The notes below the pieces were generated by a model, which ran no database searches, was not told where the DNA came from, and saw only the letters and a list, made by a program, of their open reading frames with translations. From Candidatus Woykebacteria bacterium RBG_13_40_15 (lineage in GTDB: Bacteria > Patescibacteriota > Microgenomatia > Woykebacterales > RBG-16-39-9b), in the NCBI GenBank assembly GCA_001816655.1, contig MHCP01000011.1, positions 1-38,563 on the forward strand: 38,563 nt of DNA, given 5' to 3'. Both the position numbers and the translations under genes were made by a program. Positions within the stretch are counted from its first letter, which is position 1. Each line of letters starts with the position of its first letter. Of this stretch, positions 9,001-32,331 are shown one piece after another.

Positions 9001-10276
9001 TGGGGTAACCAAAGTCGGAGCCAACTCAACTGTTAAAACTTGTAGCTCAACTATATCCACGACCACATTTGCCTATCTTAGAATCGAAGTAAGAAGTACT
9101 ACTGATGTTCGTTTCTTTGTTGATTCCAATGTTGGTGATGGCATAGTTGAAGAAGAATGTGGAACTAGCACAACCTATATCTATACAGCAGGCGGTTTGG
9201 CAGGAAATATTATGCATGCCTTTGTGGGAAATCTCTATGTTGATTATTTCCGAGTCTGGCAAGATGATTCCATCCCAATAGATTCGGATAGCGAAGAAGG
9301 GCTAGGCTCTAGTGACAGCACCGAAATTATTACTCCAACTTCCGGACATGACATTGCCGGCAGATATTCAGCGGCTGACGCTACAAGTCTATCCGCGGCT
9401 GATTTGGTCAGTTTAGACACAAGCGGAAAGGCTATACTTTCTGGTCAATCGTACGATCCTAATATTCTAGGGGTAATTTCCACTTCGCCGAACCAAATCC
9501 TTGGTTATGATGGCGATTGGACAACCGTAGAAGTATCTCTAACCGGTCACACTCCTATTAAAGTCTCAACGGAAAATGGGGCGATACAGCCTGGAGACCC
9601 ACTCACTAGCTCCTCTACTCCCGGTGTGGCAATGAAAGCCACGCAAAGCGGGCCGATTGTTGGAAAGGCGCTTGAGCCATTTGATGGCTCAGTATCAAGT
9701 ATCACGTATCAAGTATCAGGTGAAGAGTTTGCCGGAGGCAAGATTATGGTGTTTGTGAGCGTGGGATGGTACGTTGCCCCGCTTGGCGATAATCCGCCGG
9801 CTGGCGAAGGTAACTTCACTAGTATCGACGTGGGGACTTTGACGGCTGGAACGATAAATAGCCAAGTGCTTTTTGTCGGCGATCGTAAGCTTAGCATGGC
9901 TGCCACTGGCGCACTAATAGTCGATGGTGAAATGAATATCCTTGGCGACCTCTCGGTTGGAGGCGACCTAAAAGTAGCAGGAGCGATAGATACGAAAGAA
10001 TTGACTACGGAAAAGCTAAATATTGCTACTCCTTCTGCTGAACCTGGCGAAATTTCTAAAGCATCGACTGGAATTGAAATCTTAAAAGCTGGTGAAAATG
10101 TTGTTACTATTAAAACTTCCGCAGTAACAAGCGATTCTTTGATATTTGTCACTCCTACTACTGTGACTGATAAAGTACTTTCTGTAACTAAAAAGATAAC
10201 TGGAGATAGCTTTGAGGTAAAGATATTGAATCCATCGGACCAAGATATACAGTTTAATTGGTGGATTGTGAATTAG
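2..10276 (+). CDS. Giant surface/fibre-like protein, 5'-truncated (>3400 aa): beta-rich fibre repeats, right-handed beta-helix (~3770-4870), LVIVD repeats (~6310-7300), peptidase-G2/IMC-like domain and conserved FNWWIVN tail
   Basis: The frame of ORF 431..10276 is open back to base 2 (TVCLENLANCLGSGDIEAVG...RLGIGTDNPGAKLDVRG), so the true start is upstream of the window. Motifs: AIAALPAGGGVVYLLEGTY followed by NNTISGN-type repeats; six VxVSGRYAY[VE]..(F/L)DV repeats; LGVISTSP..ENGAIQPGDPLTSSSTPGVAMKA. Confidence 0.9.
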   Translation, partial: TVCLENLANCLGSGDIEAVGDVTSGEAFTDAGSNGTSLWFNNSGFQGQLTVGTLSDSNKTYTLPNLTGAVALSVGSLTNGSVLFAESGLISQDNATFYWNNSTDRLGIGTDNPGAKLDVRGNAIFNEDSGDYDFRVEGDNEAYMIMVDAGTDTLGLGDNVQADTRLYIGFDTLSVTQDASSEFVDINPALTEAGSGTHSIMAGLNIQALTLNDGAGDTTTATTLRVAGAPSGATNNYALWIDDGTSRFDSLVQLGVDEPALTPNIAGSLRLISADDNAYSTTITADTQTQNINYTLPPNDGSPNQVLLTDGFGDLSWSTVTGAGGVDINGTPTTGQATFWFDSNTIEGENAFFWGKNNNVLIIGASSPSDAAGSHLQIFDNSGTAQLNLLYDGSNSTSFTVDSSGNLTVNATGTKTVISDDLQVSGNDILNSGGNSAIDVNSRTLQNGAWTANSTANPGFTVGDGSTGYLKVGGSTISDAAGNLTLNSDTTILAISDATIRGVGALTIESTTSDLTLDSGSNIVKIADATLLGNGALTVSSGGSGNLTLDSASDTIVIAATDTTIQRVAAGTFTIDLNDANTTYFDIINGGAGVADLKINGTPLSDTDATPGAALVGTYDEFTNSNSANVQDVLDDLDAAITSGGGSAIWTDSTPGTGAGVIYPTYNTDDLAIGGTIVNASPFGVDESENTIYIGEGSNSNGTITFKASDGDTGNLAYNIDDRFAFTGGGVLFDFGAAEQFIIDATDPNSSLAGAIVDIDVDSLTDSGIGIDLNYESLLTNNAGTEMQYALSVSPVQGSTGASGTHVLYGIYVQNLATSGVPSGTNTEYGMRIGTGYDYGLQIDDGVTTALLLASNDGDAASGITFGTGANAVNLYRSANNTLRTNGNLIVDLDLTVSGGDIIGANKASIDLGETAEGQISFLSNNDIDNYIYLLTESDLPQIFWEGSETNDPGVRVNSDGKLEYRDDNDASWTTFESISVGSVTLQTAYNNDADSATAEILMTASDGSIVFKTIGGATDTQFQIAAASAPEIDLVNITNTGFATTTNGVDGLSIDFVTGDGASVTNNALNIAVTSGGTASGDIVNGINLSLSGAGGTETAINIGSGWDKVFVTNADPVASATSSLIELGAALVGGSASGTYLGINADVGYAGDFLNFQVNGTTSAKLTASGDLTLAGGDIVGAGSTAIDIGEATGGDITFSNSAAATNDTLALRPYAAGAATFKGILTSNDLTADRTWAFPDATGTVALSTTDKRVATKIVAASNSSNPDQADFKADGAGGTDDAVTIENAIAALPAGGGVVYLLEGTYYIGDVASDGVDITKSNVSIIGVGQATILQRGWDATSDDGVITVGDGGSATVTGVTIANLSINGCRAVAGSCSVAYTGSQNFGIYFNYKVTYSTVRETYLYSSDGDTIFLQGSTTTNNIIQANSFNSNNGDNIVLMLAVKNNVLGNNISNGPCIFLSTSANNNTISDNYCQSGSNGIEISASSNNTISGNVIQSTLASGIASIYLFGASNNTVTANTISSAGDVGISIEGSSNNNIITANVINEVGSDPDDGIFMVDSDNNVISSNRLLDASSSRYGINISNSTSNYNHLIANEITGSGFASGKINDAGTGTTIQQRDQFEIESTRTLGTLLSFGIPQSTTLIGALTGTDINLFNSLIATNQSVTGQYIRLPTVTNTGTGTYNYAGLSIPDIVGGLTQNNAAGTTNFYGLDLDIPAITETSGTINAYGIDISAGAAGAGSTLRALNIGNASGASTDKTAINIGSGWDTGVSIAEIAGAGSGIAITGTGARTGNLIDLTTDETGDGDLIDINVNGAKAAGGNIIEIETNAAVASDIISITTKAAATSGNLIDLNIGTVADSGDAFNLTIGSLATAAQALVVSNAAASSTAGWLMDVDTSAAWTQPAIDVDLNTAISTGNFLDITYNNVAHTGNAIDLNMGTNVAGNAIDISIAGSQNAILAILGAISSGTANGLNVTPPDITTAGGTINGINIGSITTSGGADTAINIGSGWDASIGIVDNVANAFTIKQGSNSYFDISTTDLTPSLTLDVPVQGGTSTNLNIGNNTGNTAVNLKAGTGNVNVTGNLQALASTNFNTQLVGGAELGVSGAKVYVSGRYAYEVQDSDGGAGYEFRIYDVSNPASPTAVGGTNLGYLAQGLHVSGRYAYVTNNSDDSTGNEFRIFDVSNPSSPTEVGGYNLGAHGWGVFVSGRYAYVARDSAAGNDLIIFDVSNPASPNPVGGVDLGQGAPKVYVSGRYAYVVKGSSVGTCSGADQTGCEFVIYDVSNPTSPTTAGWYDLGMTTGYAWDVYVSGRYAYVVKANNGIANDFLIFDVSNPTSPTVAGGVNLGYNGYAVYVSGRYAYVVQSTDSGTGNELRVFDVSNPASLSEVGGYNLGVDGWGVFVSGRYAYVSRDTSGSDELLVLDVTGIETTSLLAHAFEAGNGQFRDDLIIGNQLQVTGGAVIGTDGLLSNGPVGISAINTANSGLDALTLSGTLAAFNGSDTFRGLYLNYINTASHTGSNTINLFDIANIAGQANATLNAINIGQLTSNTAAAETAINIGSGWDMAINLADSSSIGLGASAGRLAFALNGASADTVTLNSANFVVQNDLLVNLSAIDHGDSAPQGLKLPQANTLTAISGGGEGYIAYDLDGNNLSYFDGSSWLAVGTSNWTDGGTYLYPNNYESVRVGSDATHYIDIAHDGTDATLSFALTNALNINIGTIDLSAQTVDVTLNAAADALNFDSNTLSIDASNNRVGIGLNNPSAVLDVTNSNTTNLLSLSTTGAVTTPTALAISATSGSGIITNAIDVSDTEIVNAINLGENNILMTDSGTVNWRDGTYNLFTFKDFSTQFGGAALAGAWIDKNSYFGEEFTRERAQVSITGNFTFGDTTAWGSSEVGVCTWDIQDNTANGILQQTFSGGTACLLYLGDDAGTASLIFNASNRPIIQMKVKPSGSGAAYDFWVGLGDSNSATTTPPTNGIYFTNNDSGYWTGVTKVGANSTVKTCSSTISTTTFAYLRIEVRSTTDVRFFVDSNVGDGIVEEECGTSTTYIYTAGGLAGNIMHAFVGNLYVDYFRVWQDDSIPIDSDSEEGLGSSDSTEIITPTSGHDIAGRYSAADATSLSAADLVSLDTSGKAILSGQSYDPNILGVISTSPNQILGYDGDWTTVEVSLTGHTPIKVSTENGAIQPGDPLTSSSTPGVAMKATQSGPIVGKALEPFDGSVSSITYQVSGEEFAGGKIMVFVSVGWYVAPLGDNPPAGEGNFTSIDVGTLTAGTINSQVLFVGDRKLSMAATGALIVDGEMNILGDLSVGGDLKVAGAIDTKELTTEKLNIATPSAEPGEISKASTGIEILKAGENVVTIKTSAVTSDSLIFVTPTTVTDKVLSVTKKITGDSFEVKILNPSDQDIQFNWWIVN

Positions 10277-10304
10277 TTAAAAGTTCAAAGTGCAAAGTTA
10301 AAAG
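10277..10304. repeat. Heptamer array, left arm of four-helix-bundle cassette 1
   Basis: TTAAAAG TTCAAAG TGCAAAG TTAAAAG fills the gap between the giant-gene stop codon and the next ATG. Confidence 0.8.
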
Positions 10305-10307
10305 TCT

Positions 10308-10688
10308 ATGAGAGCTAATAATAATGAAGATTTTAGAAGAAAACTAATAAGTAGGACTTTTGTTTTAGCTAAGAAAGTAATTCACTTAGTAGATAAATCC
10401 CCTAACAAGAGGTCCGCTTGGGTAATTTCCGACCAATTAATAAGGGCCACAACAAGTATTGGAGCAAATATCATCGAGGCGCAAGCGGCAAGCAGCAAAA
10501 AGGATTTTATTAACTTTTTGAATCATGCTCTGAAAAGCGGAAACGAAACAAAATTTTGGTTATCTCTAGCAAAAGAAATCATGCCAGAAACTGCTGATCA
10601 AATCAGCGATCTTCTAAAAGAGGTGGGAGAGTTAACTAAAATTCTCGGATCAAGCATTTCGACACTTAAAGGAAAGAACAAACTTTGA
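10308..10688 (+). CDS. Four-helix-bundle protein (TIGR02436 / 23S rRNA IVS-protein family, Avd-like fold)
   Basis: 126 aa with DQLIRATTSIGANIIEAQAASSKKDFINFLNHALKSGNETKFWL, the characteristic family motif. Confidence 0.9.
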   Translation: MRANNNEDFRRKLISRTFVLAKKVIHLVDKSPNKRSAWVISDQLIRATTSIGANIIEAQAASSKKDFINFLNHALKSGNETKFWLSLAKEIMPETADQISDLLKEVGELTKILGSSISTLKGKNKL

Positions 10689-10716
10689 ACTCTAAATTGC
10701 AATTTTTAACTTTGAA
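10683..10716. repeat. Heptamer array, right arm of cassette 1 (inverted)
   Basis: CTTTGAA CTCTAAA TTGCAA TTTTTAA CTTTGAA; CTTTGAA is the reverse complement of TTCAAAG in the left arm. Confidence 0.7.
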
Positions 10717-10731
10717 TTAAAAATAAGCCAC

Positions 10732-17577: not shown

Positions 17578-17623
17578 GCACTATGTACACACCTGGTGTG
17601 TACATAAACACCAAGAGTGTACA
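17578..17623. repeat. REP-like palindrome downstream of the transposase remnant
   Basis: ATGTACACACC-T-GGTGTGTACAT (17583-17605, perfect 11-bp arms), followed by a degenerate copy ACACCAAGAGTGTACAT. Confidence 0.85.
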
Positions 17624-17636
17624 TCACACAATCGGG

Positions 17637-18102
17637 TTAGTCGAAGAGATGGTGTTTTAAGATTTCGAGGCTTTTAGCGTAGTCTGCCTGGTCTAAAGTA
17701 AATCTTTCATAATCTGCATTTGTTTTGAAATAAGACATTACGCTCTGCAATTCAATCGGCACCAACTCAGAGCTCTTCCCTGCCTCTAGATTCAAATACC
17801 TTGGGTAAGAAGACCAGGGGTAATTTCTTAAATCAACTACCAAGTTTGACACCAACGGGTTTAAATGTATGATTTGGCATTAGACAGAAGGCAAGGATTT
17901 CTACTAACTGACCTTCGGGAAGCTTGTTAAAATTCTGTTTTGGTCGTGATAATCGATTATTAGTGGGGCGGTAGTAATGTGCTATTGTTTCAAGGAAGTG
18001 AGCGTAATCATGATCGCTTAGAAATATATTCCTTTTCTCAACTCCCCTATTAAACAGGTGATAAATTTCGTTTGTTACAAGCAAGGGCTTTCTTCTCGGC
18101 AT
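17637..18102 (-). pseudogene. REP-associated/IS200-like HUH (Y1) tyrosine transposase, internally deleted and frameshifted
   Basis: N-part MPRR..YHLFNRGVEKRNIF..D.DY..FL..ILAFCLMPNH joins out of frame to IHLNPLVSNLVVDLRNYPWSSY at ~17870; the central region is missing. Confidence 0.88.
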
Positions 18103-18137: not shown

Positions 18138-18173
18138 TGTACACACCTGGTGTGTGCAGTGTGTGCATAGTGT
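18138..18173. repeat. REP-like palindrome upstream of the transposase remnant
   Basis: TGTACACACC-T-GGTGTGTGCA, then GTGTGTGCATAGTG, which is inverted relative to CACTATGTACACAC at 17579. Confidence 0.85.
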
Positions 18174-18273: not shown

Positions 18274-21200
18274 ATGAACATTCTGCCCAACGACGACCCC
18301 GTTGGCGGGGTCGTTTTTAAATATAAAGAGTACTTAAAACAAAGCGGTTATTCTACTCCAACCGTTAAAAACTACCTCTCAGATTTACGCTATTTTTGTG
18401 ATTGGCTGAAAAACCATCACAAGGATTTGTTTTCACTGACAAAAGGCGATCTTGATAATTATCAATTTCATCTCTCGATAATCTTCAAAAATAAGCCGTC
18501 GATAAACTCCCGCAAGGCTTCATCGCTTCGCGGGTTTCTGTCCTGGGCTACTAAAGAGCAGATACTTTCTATTCAAGAAACAGCATTAATTCAAACTGAA
18601 AGCAAGCTCACCTCAGCAAAAAAATTAACTTGGTTTCTATCCCTCATCAGCTTCAAGCCAGCCCGCGAAAGAATAAGCCATTTTACTAGCTATAGACCAG
18701 ATTGGTATCACCGCTACCATCGCTGGAGTTTTGCAGCCACTCTCCACTATATAGTCTTGATAAGCTTTCTAGTTGTGGCTGGTGGTTCTTTGATATATTT
18801 CTATATATTTAGACCAGAAATGAACCAGACAAAAAAGGAGTTTGTAGCTGAACTTGGAAGCGTCCTAGCAGCTTCCCCACCAAAGATTCTTTCCTTTCAA
18901 GGTAGACTTACTAACCCAACCACAGGACAGCCAATTATTATTGCTACCAATATAGTATTTAGAATTTACACTTCTACCAGCGGGGACACTGGTAGCCCCT
19001 GTGCCAATACTTGCAAGTGGGAATCGAAAACCTGGAGTGTAACCCCAGACGCAAACGGTATTTTCTCGGTCACTCTTGGGGACACAGGAGCTAGTGATAC
19101 AGAGATTCCAGACACCCTTTTTACTGATAACCCAACTCTTTACTTGGGTGTTAAGGTTGGGGCTGACGCTGAGATGGCCCCAAGACAGAGAATTGCTTCT
19201 TCTTCTTACGCTTTGAACTCTGATGCCCTTGAAGGTTTTCACGGATCCCAATCCCCCGGGGCCAATCAAGTACCGATCCTTGATGGAAGCGGCAACTTAA
19301 TGTTCGCCGGGGCCGCGACAATTGGTACTAGCGCAAATGCCCTGACGCTAGATTCAGCTTCGGGAACACTTGCTCTTGGCTCAGGAACAACGACAATATC
19401 TTCGGCTGGAGCTTTGACTCTAAATTCGACTACTAGCAGCGCTGTTACTCTAGATTCTAGTACCACAGGGACAATTAATATTGGAAACAACGCTAATGCC
19501 AAGACAATTAATATCGGCAATGCCACAGATACTACCCTAGTCAATATTGACTCAGGAACCAGCGGGGTAACTATCGATTCTACCGGTACCGGAGACATAC
19601 TGGTTAATTCAACCGATACTCTTCTACTAGATTCGGCTGGGGTCTTAGAGTTGAATTCGTCAGCTGGAGTAATCTCAATCGGCAACGATGCTGTGGCCCA
19701 AAATATCAATATTGGTACTGGAGCCGCTGCACGAACAATTACAATTGGAAATACAACCACCACTACCGGAATAGTCTTAACCAAAGGCGCCTCTGGTGAA
19801 ATTACCCTTACTGGCTACGATGCTACCTGCACTGCTTTGGAAACTGATGCTGATGGGCACCTAAACTGCGGAACTGACGATGGCGGAGGTGGCGCTCTTC
19901 ACCAAATTACTGCCGCCACTGGTGACAACAGCATAAACAATGCCGCATGGAATCAAGTCTGGAACTGGCAGTTGGCAGGAGCAGAATCAGGCTTTAAATT
20001 TGCCGAAAACGCTGCGTCAACGGGAGGCGGAACAAATGATCAATTTATAGTCGATATTGCTACCCTAGCAACCTCTACGGCAGGACCTCTTCGGGTGACC
20101 TCAAATTCGATAGATACTTCCGATATTGTCTTTAATTTAAACAGCCTTGGGGACATAGAAATCCAGGATGCAGGAGCTGCTTTTGCTACTTTTGCTGACG
20201 ATGGGACGATCACCTTAGGCAAATCTGCCGCAGCATCTGCAATCAACATCGGCACTGGAACAGCCGGGAATACAATTTATATCGGAACTGACAATAGCAC
20301 CAAAGACACTATTTCTATTGGCTCGGCTTTAGATGACGTAGCCATTACTGGTGATGATTGGTCAATGACTAATGCGGGCGTGCTGCAATTTGGAGCAACC
20401 GGAAGCTATGATACCAACCTTTACCGCTCCGCAGCTAACACTTTAAAAACTGATGATTCTATTATTTCCGCCGGACTTGCTTCAGTCAGTGGTAGCAATT
20501 CAGTCTCAAATGTTCCCTACAATCTTCTAACCGACAAGGCTACCACTAACCGAGTGGTCAACCCTTCTTTTGAGGTTAATGTTACTGACGGCTGGCAGGC
20601 TTATGGTGGTGCTGTAGCGGGCGATCTTTCCCAAAACGCAACGCCGTATGTGGGAACTTATTCAATGAGAATTTACAAAACAGGGGCTGCTATTAACGAT
20701 GGGGCACAAACCACAACAATGCCAGTAAGTGCTTCAACAAAGTATGTTGCTTCTGTCTTTGTCATAGCAGTTTCAGGCTCGCCAACATTTAAAATCAGCT
20801 TGACTGGTGACAATAGCGGGCAAACTCAAAGCGGCGAATACACTGCTAGAGCAGTAACTAGATGGCAACGCTTCTTTGTTTATAAACAAAGCAATAGTTC
20901 AGACACAACATTTACTTTTGAAATTTATTCCTCGGCTGCTCAAAATTTTTACATTTACGTTGATGCAGTTCAGCTTGAACAAGTTTCCTGCAATAAGTCT
21001 TCTTGTGCCACTTCCTACGCTGATGGCTCTCTCGGACCAGAGTATGCTTGGACAGGCACGGCCCACAATTCAAGTTCGACTAGAACTACCGGTATTAAAT
21101 ATTTGGGTGGGGGCACTAGCGGGCCGGATCTCTACATTGGGGGCGGTGCTTATTTCGAAGGCGGAAGCGGGGATATTGATCTAAATGGTACGATTAACGC

Positions 21201-22896
21201 TACCGATTCTTCGATATTAAGTTTATATTTCTTAGGCACTCAGTACTTAAGCCCCAACCAATTAGCTATAGCCGACGTTAGTGGGGATGGCAAGGTTAGC
21301 CTCGATGATGATATTATACTTTCTTCTCTTATATACGACACCTATCCCAACAAGTACGACCCGAAAAGATTAATCGGTAATTTATACGGTGCCGGAACTA
21401 CGACACGGTTTGATGTCAACGGAGATATGGACGTCACCGGCAGCACGATTACTTTTGGAAGCTTTGCCAGCTGCGGAGCACTTTCTACAAACAGTTCCGG
21501 CGCTCTTGTGTGCAATACCGGTACCGGCGACACGGCAACTTTTACTGACGCCTCTCCAGGTGTCGTAGCAGATTCTGATGCAACAGAAATGTTTAATGAC
21601 GCCACACGGCCAAATATAACTCCAAATTCAGCTACTCAAACTGTTTTAGTTCATGCATCAGTGCGATTGGACGCTTCAGGAATAGCTGATGCAATAGCGG
21701 CTTTCAGAATTGTCCGTGAGGATGATGGCGGTTCGACTACACCTGTCTGTGATGGTACTGACCCTCAAGTAGGAAATACAATGATCGCTGGTGATCTGTT
21801 ACTATCAACCGATTTTAGTCAAGCCCAAGCTACAGTCTTGGACGCCCCGGCCAGCACCGCCGCCGTCTATTACACTGTCTGTACCAGCACAGATACTAAT
21901 ATGGGCGCGAACGTGCCGACTGCAACAAGTGTGACGGTAACATTAATTGAACTTGGGGCCGACCTTGCGGAAAATTACTATACGACTGATGATTCAATAG
22001 CCCCTGGGCAAATAGTTTCGACTGACAACTCAATACCCGCCGGGGCGGAAAAAACCACCAGAGCTTACGACTCGCAAATCCTCGGCGTTGTTTCCACTGC
22101 TCCTGGAAAAATTCTGGATGATGGGCTAGGCCTGAACTTTGGAAGGGCAATTCCTGTCGCTTTGGTCGGTCGAGTGCCGGTAAAAGTGAATGGTGAAAAC
22201 GGACCCATCGCAGTCGGCGACCTGATAACTAGTTCGTCCACTCCCGGAGTGGGCATGAAGGCTACAAAGGCAGGTTACGTGATCGGGCGGGCTTTAACCT
22301 CCTTCAGCGGTCAAGGAGAAGGTGCTGTAGTTGCTTTCGTAAATACCCAGTACGCAGATCCTGCGAATTTAGAAGCCGAGGGAAATTTGTTAGATTTAAC
22401 CGATTCTAGTTCAACTCCTAGTGCAGAGGCAACCAACTCCTCTTCTCTCAAACTTGACACAGAAAATAATATTGTCGCAACACTTTCTAGTGGGACCAGA
22501 TTTGTCTGGGTCAATTCGCTTGGTAAAGCGCTTGCCTGGATTTCTGATACAGGCGAGGCTTTTTTTGAGAAAGTTACTGCCCTGGTTGGTAATTTCCAAA
22601 AATTGATCTTTGGTGAACTGGTCGCTTCCAAAGACTCGCAAAATGCCGGTCAGGCCAGTTTCGAGCCTGATCAAACCGAAGTGGTTATTGAATCAGAAAA
22701 AGTGACCGAAGACTCTCTAATCTACGTTACCGCGGCAACTAAAACTGACGGTATTTCCCTTTACATTAAGGAGCAAAGGCCTGGGGAAGGCTTTACAGTG
22801 GCTCTGGAACGATCTAGCGGTGATCTACCAAACGAGGCAACAGCTTCAGCAACTCAAGCGATCAAGTTCAATTGGCTAATTATTAACCGGGAATAG
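18274..22896 (+). CDS. Fusion protein: integrase/Xer N-terminal SAM-like domain, TM helix, then a large extracellular fibre (CBM-like, dockerin-like, peptidase-G2-like, FNWLIIN tail)
   Basis: YKEYLKQSGYSTPTVKNYLSDLRYFCDWL..SINSRKASSLRGFLSWA; TM ~18730-18810; ILSFQGRLTN domain; NRVVNPSFE..IYVDAVQLE; GDIDLNGTINATDSSIL..ADVSGDGKVSLDD; GADLAENY..VALVGRVPVKV. AGGA lies 7 nt before the ATG. Confidence 0.88.
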   Translation: MNILPNDDPVGGVVFKYKEYLKQSGYSTPTVKNYLSDLRYFCDWLKNHHKDLFSLTKGDLDNYQFHLSIIFKNKPSINSRKASSLRGFLSWATKEQILSIQETALIQTESKLTSAKKLTWFLSLISFKPARERISHFTSYRPDWYHRYHRWSFAATLHYIVLISFLVVAGGSLIYFYIFRPEMNQTKKEFVAELGSVLAASPPKILSFQGRLTNPTTGQPIIIATNIVFRIYTSTSGDTGSPCANTCKWESKTWSVTPDANGIFSVTLGDTGASDTEIPDTLFTDNPTLYLGVKVGADAEMAPRQRIASSSYALNSDALEGFHGSQSPGANQVPILDGSGNLMFAGAATIGTSANALTLDSASGTLALGSGTTTISSAGALTLNSTTSSAVTLDSSTTGTINIGNNANAKTINIGNATDTTLVNIDSGTSGVTIDSTGTGDILVNSTDTLLLDSAGVLELNSSAGVISIGNDAVAQNINIGTGAAARTITIGNTTTTTGIVLTKGASGEITLTGYDATCTALETDADGHLNCGTDDGGGGALHQITAATGDNSINNAAWNQVWNWQLAGAESGFKFAENAASTGGGTNDQFIVDIATLATSTAGPLRVTSNSIDTSDIVFNLNSLGDIEIQDAGAAFATFADDGTITLGKSAAASAINIGTGTAGNTIYIGTDNSTKDTISIGSALDDVAITGDDWSMTNAGVLQFGATGSYDTNLYRSAANTLKTDDSIISAGLASVSGSNSVSNVPYNLLTDKATTNRVVNPSFEVNVTDGWQAYGGAVAGDLSQNATPYVGTYSMRIYKTGAAINDGAQTTTMPVSASTKYVASVFVIAVSGSPTFKISLTGDNSGQTQSGEYTARAVTRWQRFFVYKQSNSSDTTFTFEIYSSAAQNFYIYVDAVQLEQVSCNKSSCATSYADGSLGPEYAWTGTAHNSSSTRTTGIKYLGGGTSGPDLYIGGGAYFEGGSGDIDLNGTINATDSSILSLYFLGTQYLSPNQLAIADVSGDGKVSLDDDIILSSLIYDTYPNKYDPKRLIGNLYGAGTTTRFDVNGDMDVTGSTITFGSFASCGALSTNSSGALVCNTGTGDTATFTDASPGVVADSDATEMFNDATRPNITPNSATQTVLVHASVRLDASGIADAIAAFRIVREDDGGSTTPVCDGTDPQVGNTMIAGDLLLSTDFSQAQATVLDAPASTAAVYYTVCTSTDTNMGANVPTATSVTVTLIELGADLAENYYTTDDSIAPGQIVSTDNSIPAGAEKTTRAYDSQILGVVSTAPGKILDDGLGLNFGRAIPVALVGRVPVKVNGENGPIAVGDLITSSSTPGVGMKATKAGYVIGRALTSFSGQGEGAVVAFVNTQYADPANLEAEGNLLDLTDSSSTPSAEATNSSSLKLDTENNIVATLSSGTRFVWVNSLGKALAWISDTGEAFFEKVTALVGNFQKLIFGELVASKDSQNAGQASFEPDQTEVVIESEKVTEDSLIYVTAATKTDGISLYIKEQRPGEGFTVALERSSGDLPNEATASATQAIKFNWLIINRE
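18293..18318 (+). terminator. Intrinsic-terminator-like hairpin within codons 7-15 of the SAM-fibre gene
   Basis: ACGACCCCG-TTGG-CGGGGTCGT-TTTT. Confidence 0.55.
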
Positions 22897-22924
22897 TTGG
22901 TAGTTGGTATTTAGTATTATGTAT
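22894..22924. repeat. Heptamer array, left arm of four-helix-bundle cassette 2
   Basis: TAGTTGG TAGTTGG TATTTAG TATTATG TAT, starting at the stop codon of the fibre gene. Confidence 0.8.
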
Positions 22925-22928
22925 AAAA

Positions 22929-23309
22929 ATGAGAACAGAAAAGATAAAATCTTTTACTGATTTAACAGCATGGAAAGAGGCTCACAAATTAGTACTCGCG
23001 ATTTACAAAGTTGTAAAAACATTTCCAAAAGAAGAAAAATTCTGTTTAATTGATCAGATCAGGAGGGCATCTATTTCTGTTTCCTCCAATATTGCCGAAG
23101 GTTTTTCAAGGAAATCGGATTTGGAAAAGAGCCATTTTTACTATCAGGCGCTTGGTTCTTTAACTGAATTACAAAACCAATTATTAGTCGCAAGAGACGT
23201 TGGTTACATTAAAGAAAAGGCCTTTCTAGAACTAGCTAATCAAACAATAGTAGTCAGCAAATTGATTAATTCTTTAATAAGATATTTGAAGGGGAAAAAT
23301 AATACCTAA
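22929..23309 (+). CDS. Four-helix-bundle protein (TIGR02436 / 23S rRNA IVS-protein family)
   Basis: SFTDLTAWKEAHKLVLAIYKVVKTFPKEEKFCLIDQIRRASISVSSNIAEGFSR..GSLTELQNQL. Confidence 0.93.
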   Translation: MRTEKIKSFTDLTAWKEAHKLVLAIYKVVKTFPKEEKFCLIDQIRRASISVSSNIAEGFSRKSDLEKSHFYYQALGSLTELQNQLLVARDVGYIKEKAFLELANQTIVVSKLINSLIRYLKGKNNT

Positions 23310-23335
23310 TACTTACTACTCAATACTGAATACTA
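23301..23335. repeat. Heptamer array, right arm of cassette 2 (inverted)
   Basis: AATACCT AATACTT ACTACTC AATACTG AATACTA; AATACTA is the reverse complement of TAGTATT in the left arm. Confidence 0.8.
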
Positions 23336-23728
23336 ACTCCCCGGCACTTCATCTCGGGTATAACCAGCGAGGATTCCTTTAACCATATCGGCGACTTCTT
23401 TTGGTTCGTGTTCACTTTTAACGATGTACTTTACGGCTCCCTTGGAAAGAGCCGTCTCAGCATCCTTCTCACCGGACAAATTGGTCAACATCACTACGGG
23501 AATTCCTTTTGTTTCAGGATCGGCCTTGAGCCGCTCCAGAACCTGCAAACCGTTTAGTTTGGGCATCATAATATCCAAAAGAATCAAGGTTGGCTTTTCC
23601 AACCTGGCTTTATCCAAACCTTCTTGGCCATCTTTGGCCAAAGAAATCTCATACCTCTCAAAGGAAAAAATCTTTTCGTAAAGCCTGGAAATCAACGGAT
23701 CGTCTTCGACTATCAATATTTTAGCCAT
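23333..23728 (-). CDS. Single-domain response regulator (receiver only)
   Basis: KILIVEDD, LILLDIMMPKLNG, VVMLTN, YIVK; no output domain. Confidence 0.93.
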   Translation of the reverse strand: MAKILIVEDDPLISRLYEKIFSFERYEISLAKDGQEGLDKARLEKPTLILLDIMMPKLNGLQVLERLKADPETKGIPVVMLTNLSGEKDAETALSKGAVKYIVKSEHEPKEVADMVKGILAGYTRDEVPGS

Positions 23729-26947: not shown

Positions 26948-26954
26948 CTCTTTA

Positions 26955-27017
26955 GATCTAAGTTATATGATGTAAGATTTAAGATATTTTAAATTCCTGC
27001 ATCTTCGATCTTACATC
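26955..27017. repeat. Empty heptamer-periodic inverted repeat
   Basis: GATCTAA GTTATAT GATGTAA GATTTAA GAT ... ATCTTCG ATCTTAC ATC; GATGTAAGAT and ATCTTACATC are exact complements. Confidence 0.75.
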
Positions 27018-29251
27018 TATAATCCTACTAATTTACCGAGTATTTCCTTCTCTGATAATACCCCAACCACTACCCTTTTGATAATCCCCTTTCTATCGAC
27101 AAAGTAGTGCGTTGGCAGATTTTGTAAATTAAAGGCTTCAACTGTTTCCCCATCTTTATCTACAAGTACATTTATCTCATACCCAGATATTTTTGAATAA
27201 ACTCTTATCTTAGCCGCGCTTTCAAACACAGAAATTGGAACCACGTTTATATCTTTATTCTTCTGAAGGGCGGTCAAAGCAGAAAATTGCTCTTTAGCTG
27301 GAGGCGCCCAGGTTGTAACAAAAGTAACGATGGTTGGCCTGCCTCGCAAATTTAATGAACTGGTTTCTCCTCCACCTACAGACGGCAATAAAAACGAGGG
27401 CACTTCTTTTTCGATCAGGCTTTTATTTTCTAAACTCGTCTTTAGCTTTAGATCTGTTTCGATATTAATTTTTTGAACCGATAGACTCGGTAAGGAAACA
27501 GCGATTGGCCCTAATTTTAATTTAAAAGTTTCCGCCAAGTGTAAATCGGTAATAAGTGGGATAGATTGTTTCGTTTCAAAAATATCACTAACCAAGGTTT
27601 GGTAGTCCGCGGCTTGCACTTTTAAGTAGTACTTTCCAACCGGAACAAACAGTTTGAAATTGCCTTCTTTATCGGTTACTTGAGGATTCTCCTGACCGTA
27701 AGGAGCACCGTCCCAAACCACCCAGTTATTCGAATCTGGCTCAAGGTAGTAAAGGGCCACTCTCGCCTTCTCGATTGGCCGATTATTTTTTCCTCCTAGC
27801 ACTCTGGGGCTCTCACTGACAAAAACTGTGTTCAGACTTCGTTGAAGCTTGTTACCGGCACCATCAACGGAATTTGCGGTTAAGTTGTAAGTTCCCGGTT
27901 TTTTGAAGCTTAAAATTCCCGACCAAAGACCGCTGTCAGCAGATTTTGTCAGAGAAAACAGACTACCGGCGCTTTTATCATTATTAATATCCTTAGCAGA
28001 AAGGTTAATACTAGTTGGCCCGCCAACTGCTGATAGAGTAATTTTTTGATCAACTCCGGTCAAGGAAACAAGAACGCACTGCTCACTTGGCTCGAGTACT
28101 TGCGGGCCAATAGAAACTACGTTGCCCCCAACTATCGGAGGCAGCTGATCAATAATTAGAGTAACTTTATTCGAATCCGCCGTGTTACCGGAGGTATCAG
28201 TGGCACGCGCAAGAGTAATATAATTTCCATCCTCTAAATTTTGGGGGGTAAATTCAAAGGAAACTTTCTTCCCACCAAGACCATCAACTTTGTCAGCCGG
28301 CAGCCAATTTCTTCCGTCGTCGGTCGAATATTCAATGCTAAAAATACCAGCATTATCCTCGGCCTCACCTTCTATTTTGGGGGCTTCCTTGAATGGGCCA
28401 TTTGGGACGGTAGAAATTCTAATTGTGGGTGGGGTTTTCTCGGTTTGTTTCAGAGATTTCTTTGTCAGAAAACCTACCGATGGGGCTACTGGACTTCCCA
28501 AAGTCGGGGTAAGAAAAGTGTTGTCTTCAGAGTAGCCGCTGTTACCTGCTACGTCTGTGCTTTCGATAGTAAAATGGTAGGCTGTGTCTACGCTTAAGTT
28601 TGTTAAAACAATGCTGTGGTTTAACGTAGGCGTAGGATTGCTCTTTTCATTTCCATAGTTGTCATCAAGGCCATAGTAAACCGTAGAAGTTGCCGGCTCG
28701 TCAGTCGTCCAGGAAATGGTAATCGAGTTAGAAGTCAAGTTTGATAAACTAATGTTATAAATCGTTGGCGGCGTTGTATCTGGTGCCTCGCCACTAATTT
28801 CTGTACCTAAATCCCCACTGCAACTAAGGGGGTTCGCCCCGTTTGGATCATCAGAAGCTTCTACAGTCCAATTAGCTGCTGGAGCTTGAGAACTACCCGA
28901 TGTGGCTTGGACGATAAAGGAGAGGCTCTCTGATGGGTTTAGGGCCCCTTCCCGTAGTGTTACTGTAATATCAGTGAAGTTAACACTCCACCCATTAACC
29001 TGATAACCTCCAATTCTAAAGTTTAGGGAAGGCCGGGTCACTTTTATCCACCGGATTGTATTTAAATCTGTATTATTTATCTGAAACTGAAAATCGGTTG
29101 TACTTGTTGGGGCTACGCTGTGAGGTAAGACACTAGCTGTACAAGAATAGATATTGGCGTAAGCTTTCGGCCAACTAACCCAATTAAACTGTAACAAAAT
29201 CAATAGGGTTACAAGTAACAGCGTTAGTGTTTGTTTACGTAACTTGGGCAT
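27017..29251 (-). CDS. Secreted multidomain protein: FN3/Ig-like domains, carboxypeptidase-regulatory-like domain, C-terminal TlpA-like thioredoxin fold without Cys
   Basis: Signal peptide; ITISWTTDEPATSTVYYG; ARATDTSGN; NPQVTDKEGNF; LRGRPTIVTFVTTWAPPAKEQ..LPTHYFVDRKGII. Confidence 0.8.
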   Translation of the reverse strand: MPKLRKQTLTLLLVTLLILLQFNWVSWPKAYANIYSCTASVLPHSVAPTSTTDFQFQINNTDLNTIRWIKVTRPSLNFRIGGYQVNGWSVNFTDITVTLREGALNPSESLSFIVQATSGSSQAPAANWTVEASDDPNGANPLSCSGDLGTEISGEAPDTTPPTIYNISLSNLTSNSITISWTTDEPATSTVYYGLDDNYGNEKSNPTPTLNHSIVLTNLSVDTAYHFTIESTDVAGNSGYSEDNTFLTPTLGSPVAPSVGFLTKKSLKQTEKTPPTIRISTVPNGPFKEAPKIEGEAEDNAGIFSIEYSTDDGRNWLPADKVDGLGGKKVSFEFTPQNLEDGNYITLARATDTSGNTADSNKVTLIIDQLPPIVGGNVVSIGPQVLEPSEQCVLVSLTGVDQKITLSAVGGPTSINLSAKDINNDKSAGSLFSLTKSADSGLWSGILSFKKPGTYNLTANSVDGAGNKLQRSLNTVFVSESPRVLGGKNNRPIEKARVALYYLEPDSNNWVVWDGAPYGQENPQVTDKEGNFKLFVPVGKYYLKVQAADYQTLVSDIFETKQSIPLITDLHLAETFKLKLGPIAVSLPSLSVQKINIETDLKLKTSLENKSLIEKEVPSFLLPSVGGGETSSLNLRGRPTIVTFVTTWAPPAKEQFSALTALQKNKDINVVPISVFESAAKIRVYSKISGYEINVLVDKDGETVEAFNLQNLPTHYFVDRKGIIKRVVVGVLSEKEILGKLVGL

Positions 29252-30693: not shown

Positions 30694-30776
30694 AGGTTAG
30701 GTAGTATTAATTGATTGTTATATCAAACAAAATAAGGGAGTTAAATATTTAAAATTTGTTGCTAGATGTGTGCCTG

Positions 30777-30840
30777 TTCTAGGTTTTAGGTTTCAAATTT
30801 TACGCCCTAGACCTTAGAACTTAGAACTTAGAACATAAAC
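30777..30840. repeat. Empty heptamer-periodic inverted repeat after rho
   Basis: TTCTAGG TTTTAGG ... CCTAGAC CTTAGAA CTTAGAA CTTAGAA CATAAAC. Confidence 0.72.
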
Positions 30841-30842
30841 CC

Positions 30843-32078
30843 CTATCCCATTTCTTTGTGCAAACTGTCAAGAAATTCTTCGTTAGAAGCTGTTTTTGCA
30901 AGCCTATCCAAGAAAAGTTCAGTTCTTTCCACCTCATTTAAGGTATCAAGCATCCGCCGCAGCCTCCAAATCTTTTGTAGGTGTGTAGAGTCAATCAAAA
31001 GCTCTTCATTTCGTGTGCCAGAACGTGAGACATCGATTGAAGGAAAGATTCTTCGCTCTGCTAATCCTCTATCGAGGTGAAGCTCCATATTTCCAGTTCC
31101 TTTGAACTCCTCGTAAATCAAATCGTCCATCCGGCTTCCAGTATCAATCAAGGCTGTAGCGAGGATAGTTAGAGAACCACCCTGCTCGAAGTTTCTAGCG
31201 GCGCCAAAAAAGCGCTTTGGGGGATAAAGAGCTGCAGGATCAAAGCCACCACTTAGAGTTCGTCCAGATGGCGGCAGAGCTAAATTGTAAGCACGACCAA
31301 GTCTAGTAATAGAATCAAGCAAAATTACTACATCTTGGCCTGCCTCAACTAACCTTTTCGCCCTCTCTAGGGAAAGTTCGGCAATTCTTGTTTGATGCTC
31401 GGCTGGATCATCGAAATTTGAGGAATGAACCTCACCTTTGATACTTCGAGTTAAATCTGTAACTTCCTCGGGGCGTTCACCAATTAAGACAGCCATAAGA
31501 ACCGCTTTTGGAAAATTAGTAGAAACACCATTTGCCATTTCCTTCAAAATCGTTGTTTTTCCAGCTTTTGGGGGTGAAACAATCATCCCACGCTGGCCAA
31601 AACCGACAGGGACGAGTAAATCAATAACACGTGTAGAAACAGGGGTTTTGCCAGTTTCTAGCTTTAGCAAGCGATTCGGATAAACTGGAGTAAGTTGTTC
31701 GAACCTAGGTCTTTTCGCTGTTTTTTCGACATCAAGGCTATTTACTTTAAGAACCCTTAGCATACCAAAATAGCGTTCTGTTTCTTTTGGAGGGCGCACT
31801 TCGCCTTCTACCTCATCGCCAGGCCTAATATCAAAACGGCGGATTTGAGATTGGGAAATGTAAATATCATCGGTACTTGGATTTAAACCATTAGCTCGCA
31901 AAAAACCATACCCTTCCGGCATTACTTCAAGAACGCCTTTTCGAGTCTCGCTTGATCCAGAAATAGACTCATGAGGTATTTCTATTTCTTTCTCTTCTTC
32001 AAGAACAACTTCAGGGGTTTCTTTTTTTGAATCTTCAGTTTTTTCTTCTTCTTTTGGAGTAGTTTTTGTTCTTGGCAT
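30843..32078 (-). CDS. rho: Transcription termination factor Rho
   Basis: [60 protein letters not shown]. Probable start ATG 32078; the track start at 32105 falls inside a palindrome. Confidence 0.97.
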
Positions 32079-32093
32079 ACAAGTAGAATTTAG

Positions 32094-32112
32094 CCTGCCT
32101 GCCAACAGGCAG
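32094..32112. repeat. Copy of the CCTGCC palindrome upstream of rho
   Basis: CCTGCCTGCCAACAGGCAG, similar to 14655-14675. Confidence 0.65.
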
Positions 32113-32258
32113 AACTTAATAATTAAGAATTAAGAACGAAAAATTAATTTCTTTATAATCAACGGTCAAAATTTCCATCGCTATTGGGAAAACAAAACTT
32201 GCGAGGTTAAAAATCACCCACATTTAATCACACAAAATAGCATTTGTCAACACTATTG

Positions 32259-32327
32259 ATCTAGGTTATATGTTGTAGGTTCTAGGAAAAACCAATTTCA
32301 TACATCCTAGACCCTAGAACCTAAATC
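32259..32327. repeat. Empty heptamer-periodic inverted repeat after the LPxTG gene
   Basis: ATCTAGG TTATATG TTGTAGG TTCTAGG-N12-CATACAT CCTAGAC CCTAGAA CCTAAAT. Confidence 0.8.
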
Positions 32328-32331
32328 AAAA

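Follow-up and report, generated by a model that had tools for sequence, protein, structure and literature searches.

In a 38,563-nt stretch of the genome of Candidatus Woykebacteria bacterium RBG_13_40_15 (hereafter the window), a gene for a 126-residue four-helix-bundle protein of the PF05635/TIGR02436 family is enclosed by two inverted arrays of a 7-nt word, and the resulting cassette takes up all of the space that separates two convergent genes, reaching from one stop codon to the other. We take it to be the same kind of unit as the open reading frame (ORF)-bearing intervening sequences (IVSs) of 23S ribosomal RNA (rRNA), set here between protein genes, and we think it probable that the protein recognizes the heptamers of its own cassette and that this recognition serves the upkeep of the cassette itself. 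Members of this family have been known since the 1990s only as odd ORFs in rRNA IVSs; the family is very large and includes solved structures, and we know of no function for it outside diversity-generating retroelements (DGRs). The window comes from contig C11 of a 983-kb, 36-contig genome of the candidate phyla radiation (CPR) that is 97.6% complete (labeled G000, with relatives labeled G0xx).

A heptamer-flanked gene fills the gap between two convergent genes

The cassette and the two genes that border it are arranged as follows.

18274–22896, plus strand: upstream surface-protein gene, 1540 aa, with CBM_4_9 and dockerin domains (ORF and profile matches)
22894–22928, plus strand: left arm, five tandem heptamers (sequence, repeat search, lag-7 identity)
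22929–23309, plus strand: four-helix-bundle ORF, 126 aa (PF05635, TIGR02436, predicted structure)
23300–23334, plus strand: right arm, five tandem heptamers of the form (N)AATACT (sequence, repeat search, lag-7 identity)
23333–23728, minus strand: convergent response-regulator gene (ORF and profile), outside the cassette and given for context

The TAG stop codon of the surface-protein gene is the first triplet of the left arm, whose five units (TAGTTGG TAGTTGG TATTTAG TATTATG TATAAAA; 35 nt) have the core GTAGT/GTATT when read in the phase GTANTNN and stop one base short of the ATG at 22929. The right arm (TAATACC TAATACT TACTACT CAATACT GAATACT; 35 nt) starts 7 nt upstream of the ORF stop, so that its second unit contains the TAA at 23307–23309, and its last unit is overlapped by the stop codon of the response-regulator gene (23333–23335, minus strand). 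Read in reverse complement, its word (N)AATACT gives AGTATT(N), the word of the left arm. Each arm has a lag-7 identity of 17/21, and Tandem Repeats Finder (TRF) reports period 7 at 22894–22909 and 23308–23336.

An inverted-repeat search returned five overlapping pairings of 19–25 nt with 76–81% complementarity, indicating that the arms pair in several registers. The RNA of positions 22880–23350 is predicted to fold with the arms paired at −105.8 kcal/mol, compared with −88.3 ± 5.8 kcal/mol for shuffled sequences (z = −3.0; 3 of 100 shuffles equally good). The ORF is thus enclosed, like that of a 23S rRNA IVS, between terminal inverted repeats that can pair into a long stem; terminal inverted repeats are also what a transposon or a miniature inverted-repeat transposable element (MITE) would have. 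The ORF list and the profile search place no transposase or recombinase domain in the cassette, the four-helix bundle being its sole ORF. A site scan found no Shine–Dalgarno-like or promoter-like site within the left arm, no promoter-like site upstream of the cassette ORF, and no terminator-like site at the arms (one elsewhere in the region versus 1.4 expected); an intrinsic terminator was rejected, there being no G+C-rich hairpin with a T run at the arms. At the gathering threshold, Rfam reports only two tRNAs within the window, neither of them covering the cassette.

The encoded protein resembles IVS proteins more than Avd

The ORF matches PF05635 at 1.3e-36 (125.5 bits; cut-off 33.8) and TIGR02436 at 3.9e-35 (120.4 bits; cut-off 24). 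An AlphaFold2 model built from a 40-row alignment (predicted local distance difference test score 95.3) has helices at residues 13–31, 34–60, 64–90, and 96–124, which together form a predicted up-down four-helix bundle like those of 2GSC and 2RLD. A Foldseek search with this model returned 2GSC as the best match (template modeling [TM] score 0.89) and 2RLD at 0.78, and phmmer matches 2gsc_A at 4.2e-18; both entries list chains A–E, that is, five each.

A sister cassette lies farther upstream in the window.

10275–10721, plus strand: cassette 1 (sequence, profiles, TRF)

It comprises a left arm of AGTTNAA ×5 at 10275–10309, an ORF at 10308–10688 (126 aa), and an inverse array from 10681, and it lies directly 3′ of an ORF of at least 3424 aa that terminates at 10276. 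The two cassette proteins are 29% identical over 100 residues. An initial annotation, made from the DNA sequence alone, had described our cassette as a paralogue of cassette 1 enclosed by heptamer arms and had pointed to LKGKN at the end of both proteins; the sequence bears out both statements, the two C termini reading ...RYLKGKNNT and ...STLKGKNKL.

Behind 2GSC and 2RLD, the Foldseek matches continue with Avd (4DWL) and DGR ribonucleoprotein entries (8UB7) at TM scores of 0.73–0.79. This likeness raises the alternative that the gene is a DGR remnant or accessory, an Avd gene behind the variable 3′ end of a surface-protein gene. DGRs have the gene order target–avd, which the place of the cassette behind a surface-protein gene resembles. 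PF05635 is also given as the commonest Pfam family near DGR reverse transcriptases in the passages seen of PMC10053308. Against these points, the Avd model NF033474 matches the ORF weakly, scoring 28 bits where its cut-off is 80. The genome's single reverse transcriptase is retron-like and sits on a different contig (C15, ≈52858–53916, or 1237–2295 of locus L065); it reaches 150.7 bits with the retron St85 family model, whose cut-off is 235. Moreover, no template-like repeat of the 3′ end of either giant gene of the window occurs anywhere in the genome. With neither a DGR-type reverse transcriptase nor a template/variable repeat pair in the assembly, a DGR role is largely refuted, and we regard it as very improbable. 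Avd itself is a pentameric basic barrel, comparable in this to the five-chain entries 2GSC and 2RLD, and binds one particular RNA element, according to the part seen of bioRxiv 10.1101/2023.10.23.563531, and is not described as flanked by heptamer arrays.

Inverted heptamer arms accompany the gene in related genomes

The inverted-arm score of the window cassette is 25, compared with a 99th percentile of 24 among 887 background genes of the same genome. Heptamer repeats could in principle be so common between genes that they flank this ORF by chance. Genome-wide, TRF finds 83 period-7 arrays versus 21 in a shuffled genome, and 36 of them are intergenic, making 7 the commonest period of tandem repeats in the ≈14% of the genome left non-coding by crude gene calls (936 calls). 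Yet a lag-7 identity of at least 16/21 on both sides occurs in only 3 of 897 background genes, inspection by eye finds arrays at all five of the resident family genes, and the architecture recurs in 71–74 of 80–87 relatives. This background comparison refutes coincidence, which we consider hardly credible.

The relatives were collected in two sets. TIGR02436 was detected in 31 of 41 related genomes searched, yielding 88 non-identical full-length genes with flanks, 87 of which could be scored for arms; 74 of the 87 score higher than the 95th percentile of the background genes and 57 higher than the 99th. The second, independent set comprises 80 named Patescibacteria loci with proteins 47–71% identical to that of the window; it was found with the single window protein as query and therefore holds only close relatives in Patescibacteria-labeled metagenome-assembled genomes. 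Here 71 of 80 exceed the 95th percentile and 60 the 99th. A lag of 7 is the best period in 57 of 85 upstream and 62 of 85 downstream flanks of the first set, versus 88 and 107, respectively, of 897 background genes; period 8 is best instead in 8 upstream and 10 downstream flanks (of 85 each). Arrays have median lengths of 4.4 and 4.7 units (range 3–13). The median distance from the end of an upstream array to the start codon is 2 nt, and downstream arrays begin at about the stop codon, 21 of 53 of them inside the ORF. The cassette lies just downstream of a co-directional gene in 51 of 88 cases in the first set and 64 of 80 in the second, suggesting that the cassettes are probably co-transcribed with the gene before them.

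The heptamer word follows the protein lineage

Words were compared among the 46 of 85 cassettes that have clear arms by a fixed criterion. Protein identity correlates with heptamer similarity (Spearman 0.42, a value reached by 0 of 2000 label permutations), and the correlation persists after correction for base composition (Spearman 0.27, again 0 of 2000). Similar words are found in 2.5% of pairs below 25% protein identity, in 26% at 45–60%, and in 82% above 60% (11 pairs). When close pairs are chosen to be disjoint, with each cassette used once (54–68% identity), the heptamer similarity of 14 of 14 exceeds the 90th percentile of the background. With this same percentile as threshold, 48 of the 59 clear relatives in the second, Patescibacteria-wide set (55 of all 80) resemble the window word. 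The core is GTA-type in 38 of those 59 (exactly GTATT in 27) and GAAT-type in 12, the last mostly with more distant proteins, and the final two positions of the word vary freely. One residue is a candidate for covariation with the core: Tyr at column 66 of the profile hidden Markov model is present in 8 of 12 cassettes with a GAA core and in 0 of 39 with a GTA core.

Neutral or silent DNA should be saturated at 50–70% protein identity, and the persistence of the word over that distance therefore points to a constraint coupled to the protein. Inheritance of the word along the protein lineage suggests in turn that the protein recognizes its own flanks. The initial annotation had proposed that each cassette has its own cognate repeat and that protein clade and heptamer should be checked for co-variation; the correlation was found, and the proposal stands as an association (five words for the five resident cassettes, the Spearman coefficient of 0.42, and the 14 of 14 close pairs), binding of each protein to its own repeat being putative. 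Its view that structure and not sequence is conserved holds between lineages, where the word differs, and fails within a lineage, where the word is kept, as by the 38 of 59 GTA-type cores.

Word and orientation, rather than RNA pairing, as the probable object of selection

Arms that pair could be kept for the sake of the RNA stem. In the Coxiella burnetii IVS, GACAGAT ×3 stands before the S23p ORF within a stem that RNase III cleaves in vitro, as reported in the passages seen of PMC4990558, and a cassette could likewise be a pure RNA-processing element, the arms only forming a double-stranded stem for RNase III, the heptamers being a by-product of slippage, and no protein reading the arms. The predicted fold that pairs the arms (z = −3.0) agrees with this, as do the many cassettes behind co-directional genes with which they are probably co-transcribed, and so does the lack of a promoter-like site before the ORF in the window. 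The mismatches speak against it. If the transcript had to pair, the transcribed strand should carry an excess of G-U-compatible arm mismatches, yet there are 110 in the sense and 108 in the antisense direction over 67 cassettes of the first set, and 63 and 74 over 70 cassettes of the second. This absence of a G-U strand bias suggests that the word itself, not RNA pairing, is kept. Several registers, moreover, pair almost equally well (identity 0.68 in other in-phase registers versus 0.81), and conservation of the word with the protein lineage is not something that a stem alone requires. We consider a pure RNA-processing element unlikely, if the most substantial of the competing explanations. 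RNase III cutting of a paired transcript may, by analogy with Coxiella, still be compatible with the mismatch pattern.

Most simply read, each arm is a row of copies of a single word, and the arms are complementary because the two arrays point in opposite directions. Pairing specific to one register was dropped as a feature, its excess over simulated independent units being only marginal (0.133 versus 0.087 simulated, P = 0.04, 20 of 36). A role as a stop-codon insulator, with stops in all frames for genes reading into the cassette, was rejected as too weak and in the wrong direction: a stop occurs in 34 of 46 words on the inward strand versus 31.4 expected (P = 0.2), and in 30 of 46 on the outward strand versus 22.3 expected (P = 0.002).

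Resident cassettes and gene-less arrays

The ≈1-Mb genome holds five TIGR02436 genes, and all five have inverted heptamer arms, with five different words: AGTATTN (the window cassette), AAAGTTN (cassette 1), GTGTCAA, AGCAGTA/AGCAGAA, and a TAGTNAC-type word. None of the five copies is within an rRNA gene, Rfam being empty at the loci of the other four, and insertion into a helix of the 23S rRNA gene was accordingly set aside for all five. Three of the five are away from giant genes; one of the resident copies lies between pilC-like and prepilin-peptidase-like genes, as read from flanking translations.

In addition, the genome has at least eight gene-less hairpins, each formed by inverted heptamer arrays around a short loop; three lie in the window (strand not assigned).

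26954–27023: hairpin without gene, TAAGATN family, between two genes (TRF, inverted arrays)
30775–30836: hairpin without gene, CTAGAAC family, just downstream of rho (30843–32105, minus strand)
32256–32329: hairpin without gene, CCTAGAN family, upstream of rho, with a further array at 32111–32147

Five cassettes and at least eight gene-less hairpins are a notable load for an ultra-small CPR genome. Heptamer arrays lie beside rho in 2 of 30 genomes upstream and 2 of 30 downstream (G000 counted), a rarity that marks the rho hairpins as lineage-specific. Loss of a gene was considered as their origin; of 29 relatives examined, only 1 has a four-helix-bundle-like ORF directly behind rho. Gene-less arrays are slightly closer to foreign cassette words than position-permuted controls are (0.729 versus 0.701, 0 of 1000), and 4 of them reach a similarity of at least 0.8 to a foreign word, compared with 0.9 in controls.

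The first giant gene has an AGTATCA ×4 array within its coding sequence, at 9691–9718 of the window. This array matches in reverse complement an intergenic array of contig C34 (1412–1437) and is similar to the right arm of the contig-C25 cassette.

A proposed self-recognizing cassette and its relation to known elements

In the mechanism we favor, the heptamers would be recognition units of the cassette's own protein, and an oligomer might read about five words on each side, by analogy with the five-chain relatives and the pentameric, RNA-binding Avd. Such self-recognition would serve the upkeep of the cassette by spread, excision, or processing, and the arms may also pair in the transcript, as in the Coxiella IVS stem cut by RNase III. 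Selection would act on the word and its orientation more than on RNA pairing, as the mismatch pattern suggests, and the link to giant genes would reflect where cassettes land and survive in a very compact genome, not any service to the giant protein. Binding, oligomer state, processing, and mobility of the cassette are all things that we infer. A bolder extension, which we hold to be possible but doubtful, is that the family as a whole consists of sequence-specific readers of tandem words (a core of ≈5 nt plus a 2-nt spacer, one word per ring subunit), that its cassettes are autonomous selfish units recognizing their own ends, and that spread followed by gene loss seeds the arrays and hairpins.

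Several observations weigh against self-recognition. The same correlation would arise if protein and arms were co-inherited as one unit and the word were constrained for another reason, and the word comparisons exclude the 39 of 85 and 21 of 80 cassettes that have no clear arms. For the lead from the column-66 Tyr to the core, supported branches of the tree offer a single independent pair. Strict five-unit arms matching a pentamer are not general, given the medians and range of array length above, and were dropped. The 26 gene-less arrays are no nearer to the resident words than to five random foreign ones (0.619 versus 0.616, P = 0.52), giving no sign that resident proteins act on them in trans. 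The cassette has no known recombinase or transposase, and neither a target-site duplication nor an exact empty site can be defined at the orthologous loci described below, whose flanks are too diverged.

The closest known systems are the ORF-bearing 23S rRNA IVSs, reported from Coxiella and, as cited in PMC4990558, from Leptospira. According to the passages seen of that paper, they share with the cassette a PF05635 protein, an ORF enclosed by pairing terminal inverted repeats, and, in Coxiella, heptamers before the start codon, and they are regarded as selfish. The window cassette differs from them in standing between protein genes, in a genome with five copies that each have their own word; arms built of heptamers, with a word tied to the protein lineage, are not stated as a general rule in those passages. 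In CPR bacteria, IVP ORFs are reported in 16S and 23S rRNA insertions (PMC11270868), in a main text, supplements aside, where neither "heptam" nor "inverted repeat" occurs.

Another relevant comparison is with repetitive extragenic palindromic (REP) elements and bacterial interspersed mosaic elements (BIMEs) with their REP-associated tyrosine transposase (RAYT; IS200-like Y1), and with MITEs. As with REP/BIME–RAYT, a small gene is bracketed by inverted repeats that are also scattered as gene-less intergenic hairpins. Here, in contrast, the protein is a helical bundle with neither HUH nor known transposase motifs, the repeats are tandem 7-nt words, and mobility would be our deduction.

Intergenic heptanucleotides have been described as GGGAATC in Xanthomonas (70–75 convergent pairs), GGGGAYT in Nostoc, and TAACTGA in Beggiatoaceae (passages of PMC4692102 and PMC4679880). 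These arrays, as described in those passages, likewise consist of tandem 7-nt units between genes, often in convergent pairs, and present an unexplained excess of period 7; in those genomes a single word prevails, and in ours every cassette has a word of its own. S23, four-helix, and intervening sequence are all absent from the passages of these two papers that were searched. Full-text searches, subscription journals and supplements aside, turned up no general account of heptamer inverted arms at PF05635 genes, nor of a link between this family and intergenic heptamers, and the class of cassette seems to be undescribed in print beyond rRNA IVSs.

The window adds a clean five-plus-five cassette bounded on each side by a stop codon and, behind one family of giant surface-protein genes, a documented hot spot; it also adds evidence for inheritance of the word along with the protein lineage and evidence that speaks against selection for RNA pairing. 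If the heptamers are indeed the protein's own recognition sites, the role of the family, the ends of rRNA IVSs, and the intergenic period-7 excess become one testable system. Should the family's proteins be readers of words in general, this would explain the long-noted excess of 7-nt repeats and offer a new, evolvable nucleic acid recognition code.

Giant surface-protein genes as a favored neighborhood

Both cassettes of the window follow genes for large surface proteins, one of 1540 aa (CBM_4_9, dockerin) and one of at least 3424 aa (LVIVD repeats, beta-helix). The initial annotation called these giant fiber genes; that they encode large surface proteins holds, while a fiber or tailspike nature is indicated by nothing beyond a sub-threshold K1-lyase_C match in the last 70 residues of the first giant protein (10062–10273; 23.9 bits, cut-off 27). 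The two share a C-terminal domain of ≈310 aa with an FNW-I-N type end (32.6% identity over 344 aa). This domain was found at 30 loci, from which one duplicate and two ORFs running off their contigs were removed and to which the first giant gene was added, giving 28 ORFs with a visible stop. A four-helix-bundle gene follows within 50 nt in 8 of the 28, compared with ≈0.1 expected from roughly 4 such genes per ≈900; six of the eight are intact, one is frameshifted (G006), and one is partial. The frameshifted copy is syntenic with the window and has a decayed left arm. The enrichment that the annotation had proposed to look for is therefore real.

The annotation had left open whether the link to fiber genes reflects a functional partnership or a preferred context for insertion. 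A partnership, in which the small protein serves the upstream fiber-like gene, for example as a regulator or assembly factor, would agree with this count and with the gene calls of at least 1500 aa, of which there are 3 among 936: a cassette comes after two of them, and a pair of gene-less heptamer hairpins after the third (contig C32). However, 20 of the 28 ORFs have no four-helix-bundle gene after the stop, most having none in view; in G026 and G039, sub-threshold remnants, not counted among the eight, lie behind such ORFs. The adjoining cassettes come from unrelated lineages, with 7 changes for 7 rows in the protein tree (weakly resolved; 18 of 85 branches starred), one is on the opposite strand, and another, that of G006, is frameshifted. 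Other neighbors stand beside three of the five resident copies and 79 of the 80 wider relatives (1 of 80 being next to a giant-gene-type neighbor), and rRNA genes and many further contexts are known to harbor members of the four-helix-bundle family. Unrelated lineages, an opposite strand, and the location of most copies elsewhere favor a preference of insertion over partnership, which we judge improbable.

The orthologous loci show how changeable the site is. At the orthologous giant gene, the cassette is missing in G003, G016, and G008, and in G016 the two stop codons abut; in G007 an unrelated cassette with another word lies on the opposite strand, and in G012 the site holds an IS200-like Y1 transposase gene between palindromes. 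The two cassette proteins of the window fall in different deep halves of the tree, and since the giant C termini are related and the cassette proteins are not sisters, an ancient duplication of giant gene plus cassette was rejected. The site behind this gene family is occupied repeatedly by unrelated cassettes, and the 3′ ends of giant genes look like a favored landing or survival site, not a partnership. Repeated landing would mark the 3′ ends of giant surface-protein genes as hot spots of genome change.

Some smaller observations concern the neighborhoods. Cassettes also occur behind pilC-like genes in two different families (L002, L108). Locus L008 (G013:C8:13070–16390) carries two tandem cassettes, each ≈62% identical to the window protein, which follow a 4824-aa open frame with the C-terminal domain family of the giant genes. 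The 1540-aa protein starts with ≈100 residues matching the phage-integrase N-terminal SAM-like domain (PF02899, 8e-08), followed by a hydrophobic segment (18274–18873), an odd head for a dockerin/CBM protein. Just upstream of its gene, two palindromes of ≈19 nt (GTACACACCTGGTGTGTAC type) at ≈17585–17603 and ≈18139–18157 bracket two small unassigned ORFs at 17637–17855 and 17833–18102 (minus strand), and similar palindromes are those that flank the IS200-like Y1 transposase gene at the cassette-orthologous site in G012.

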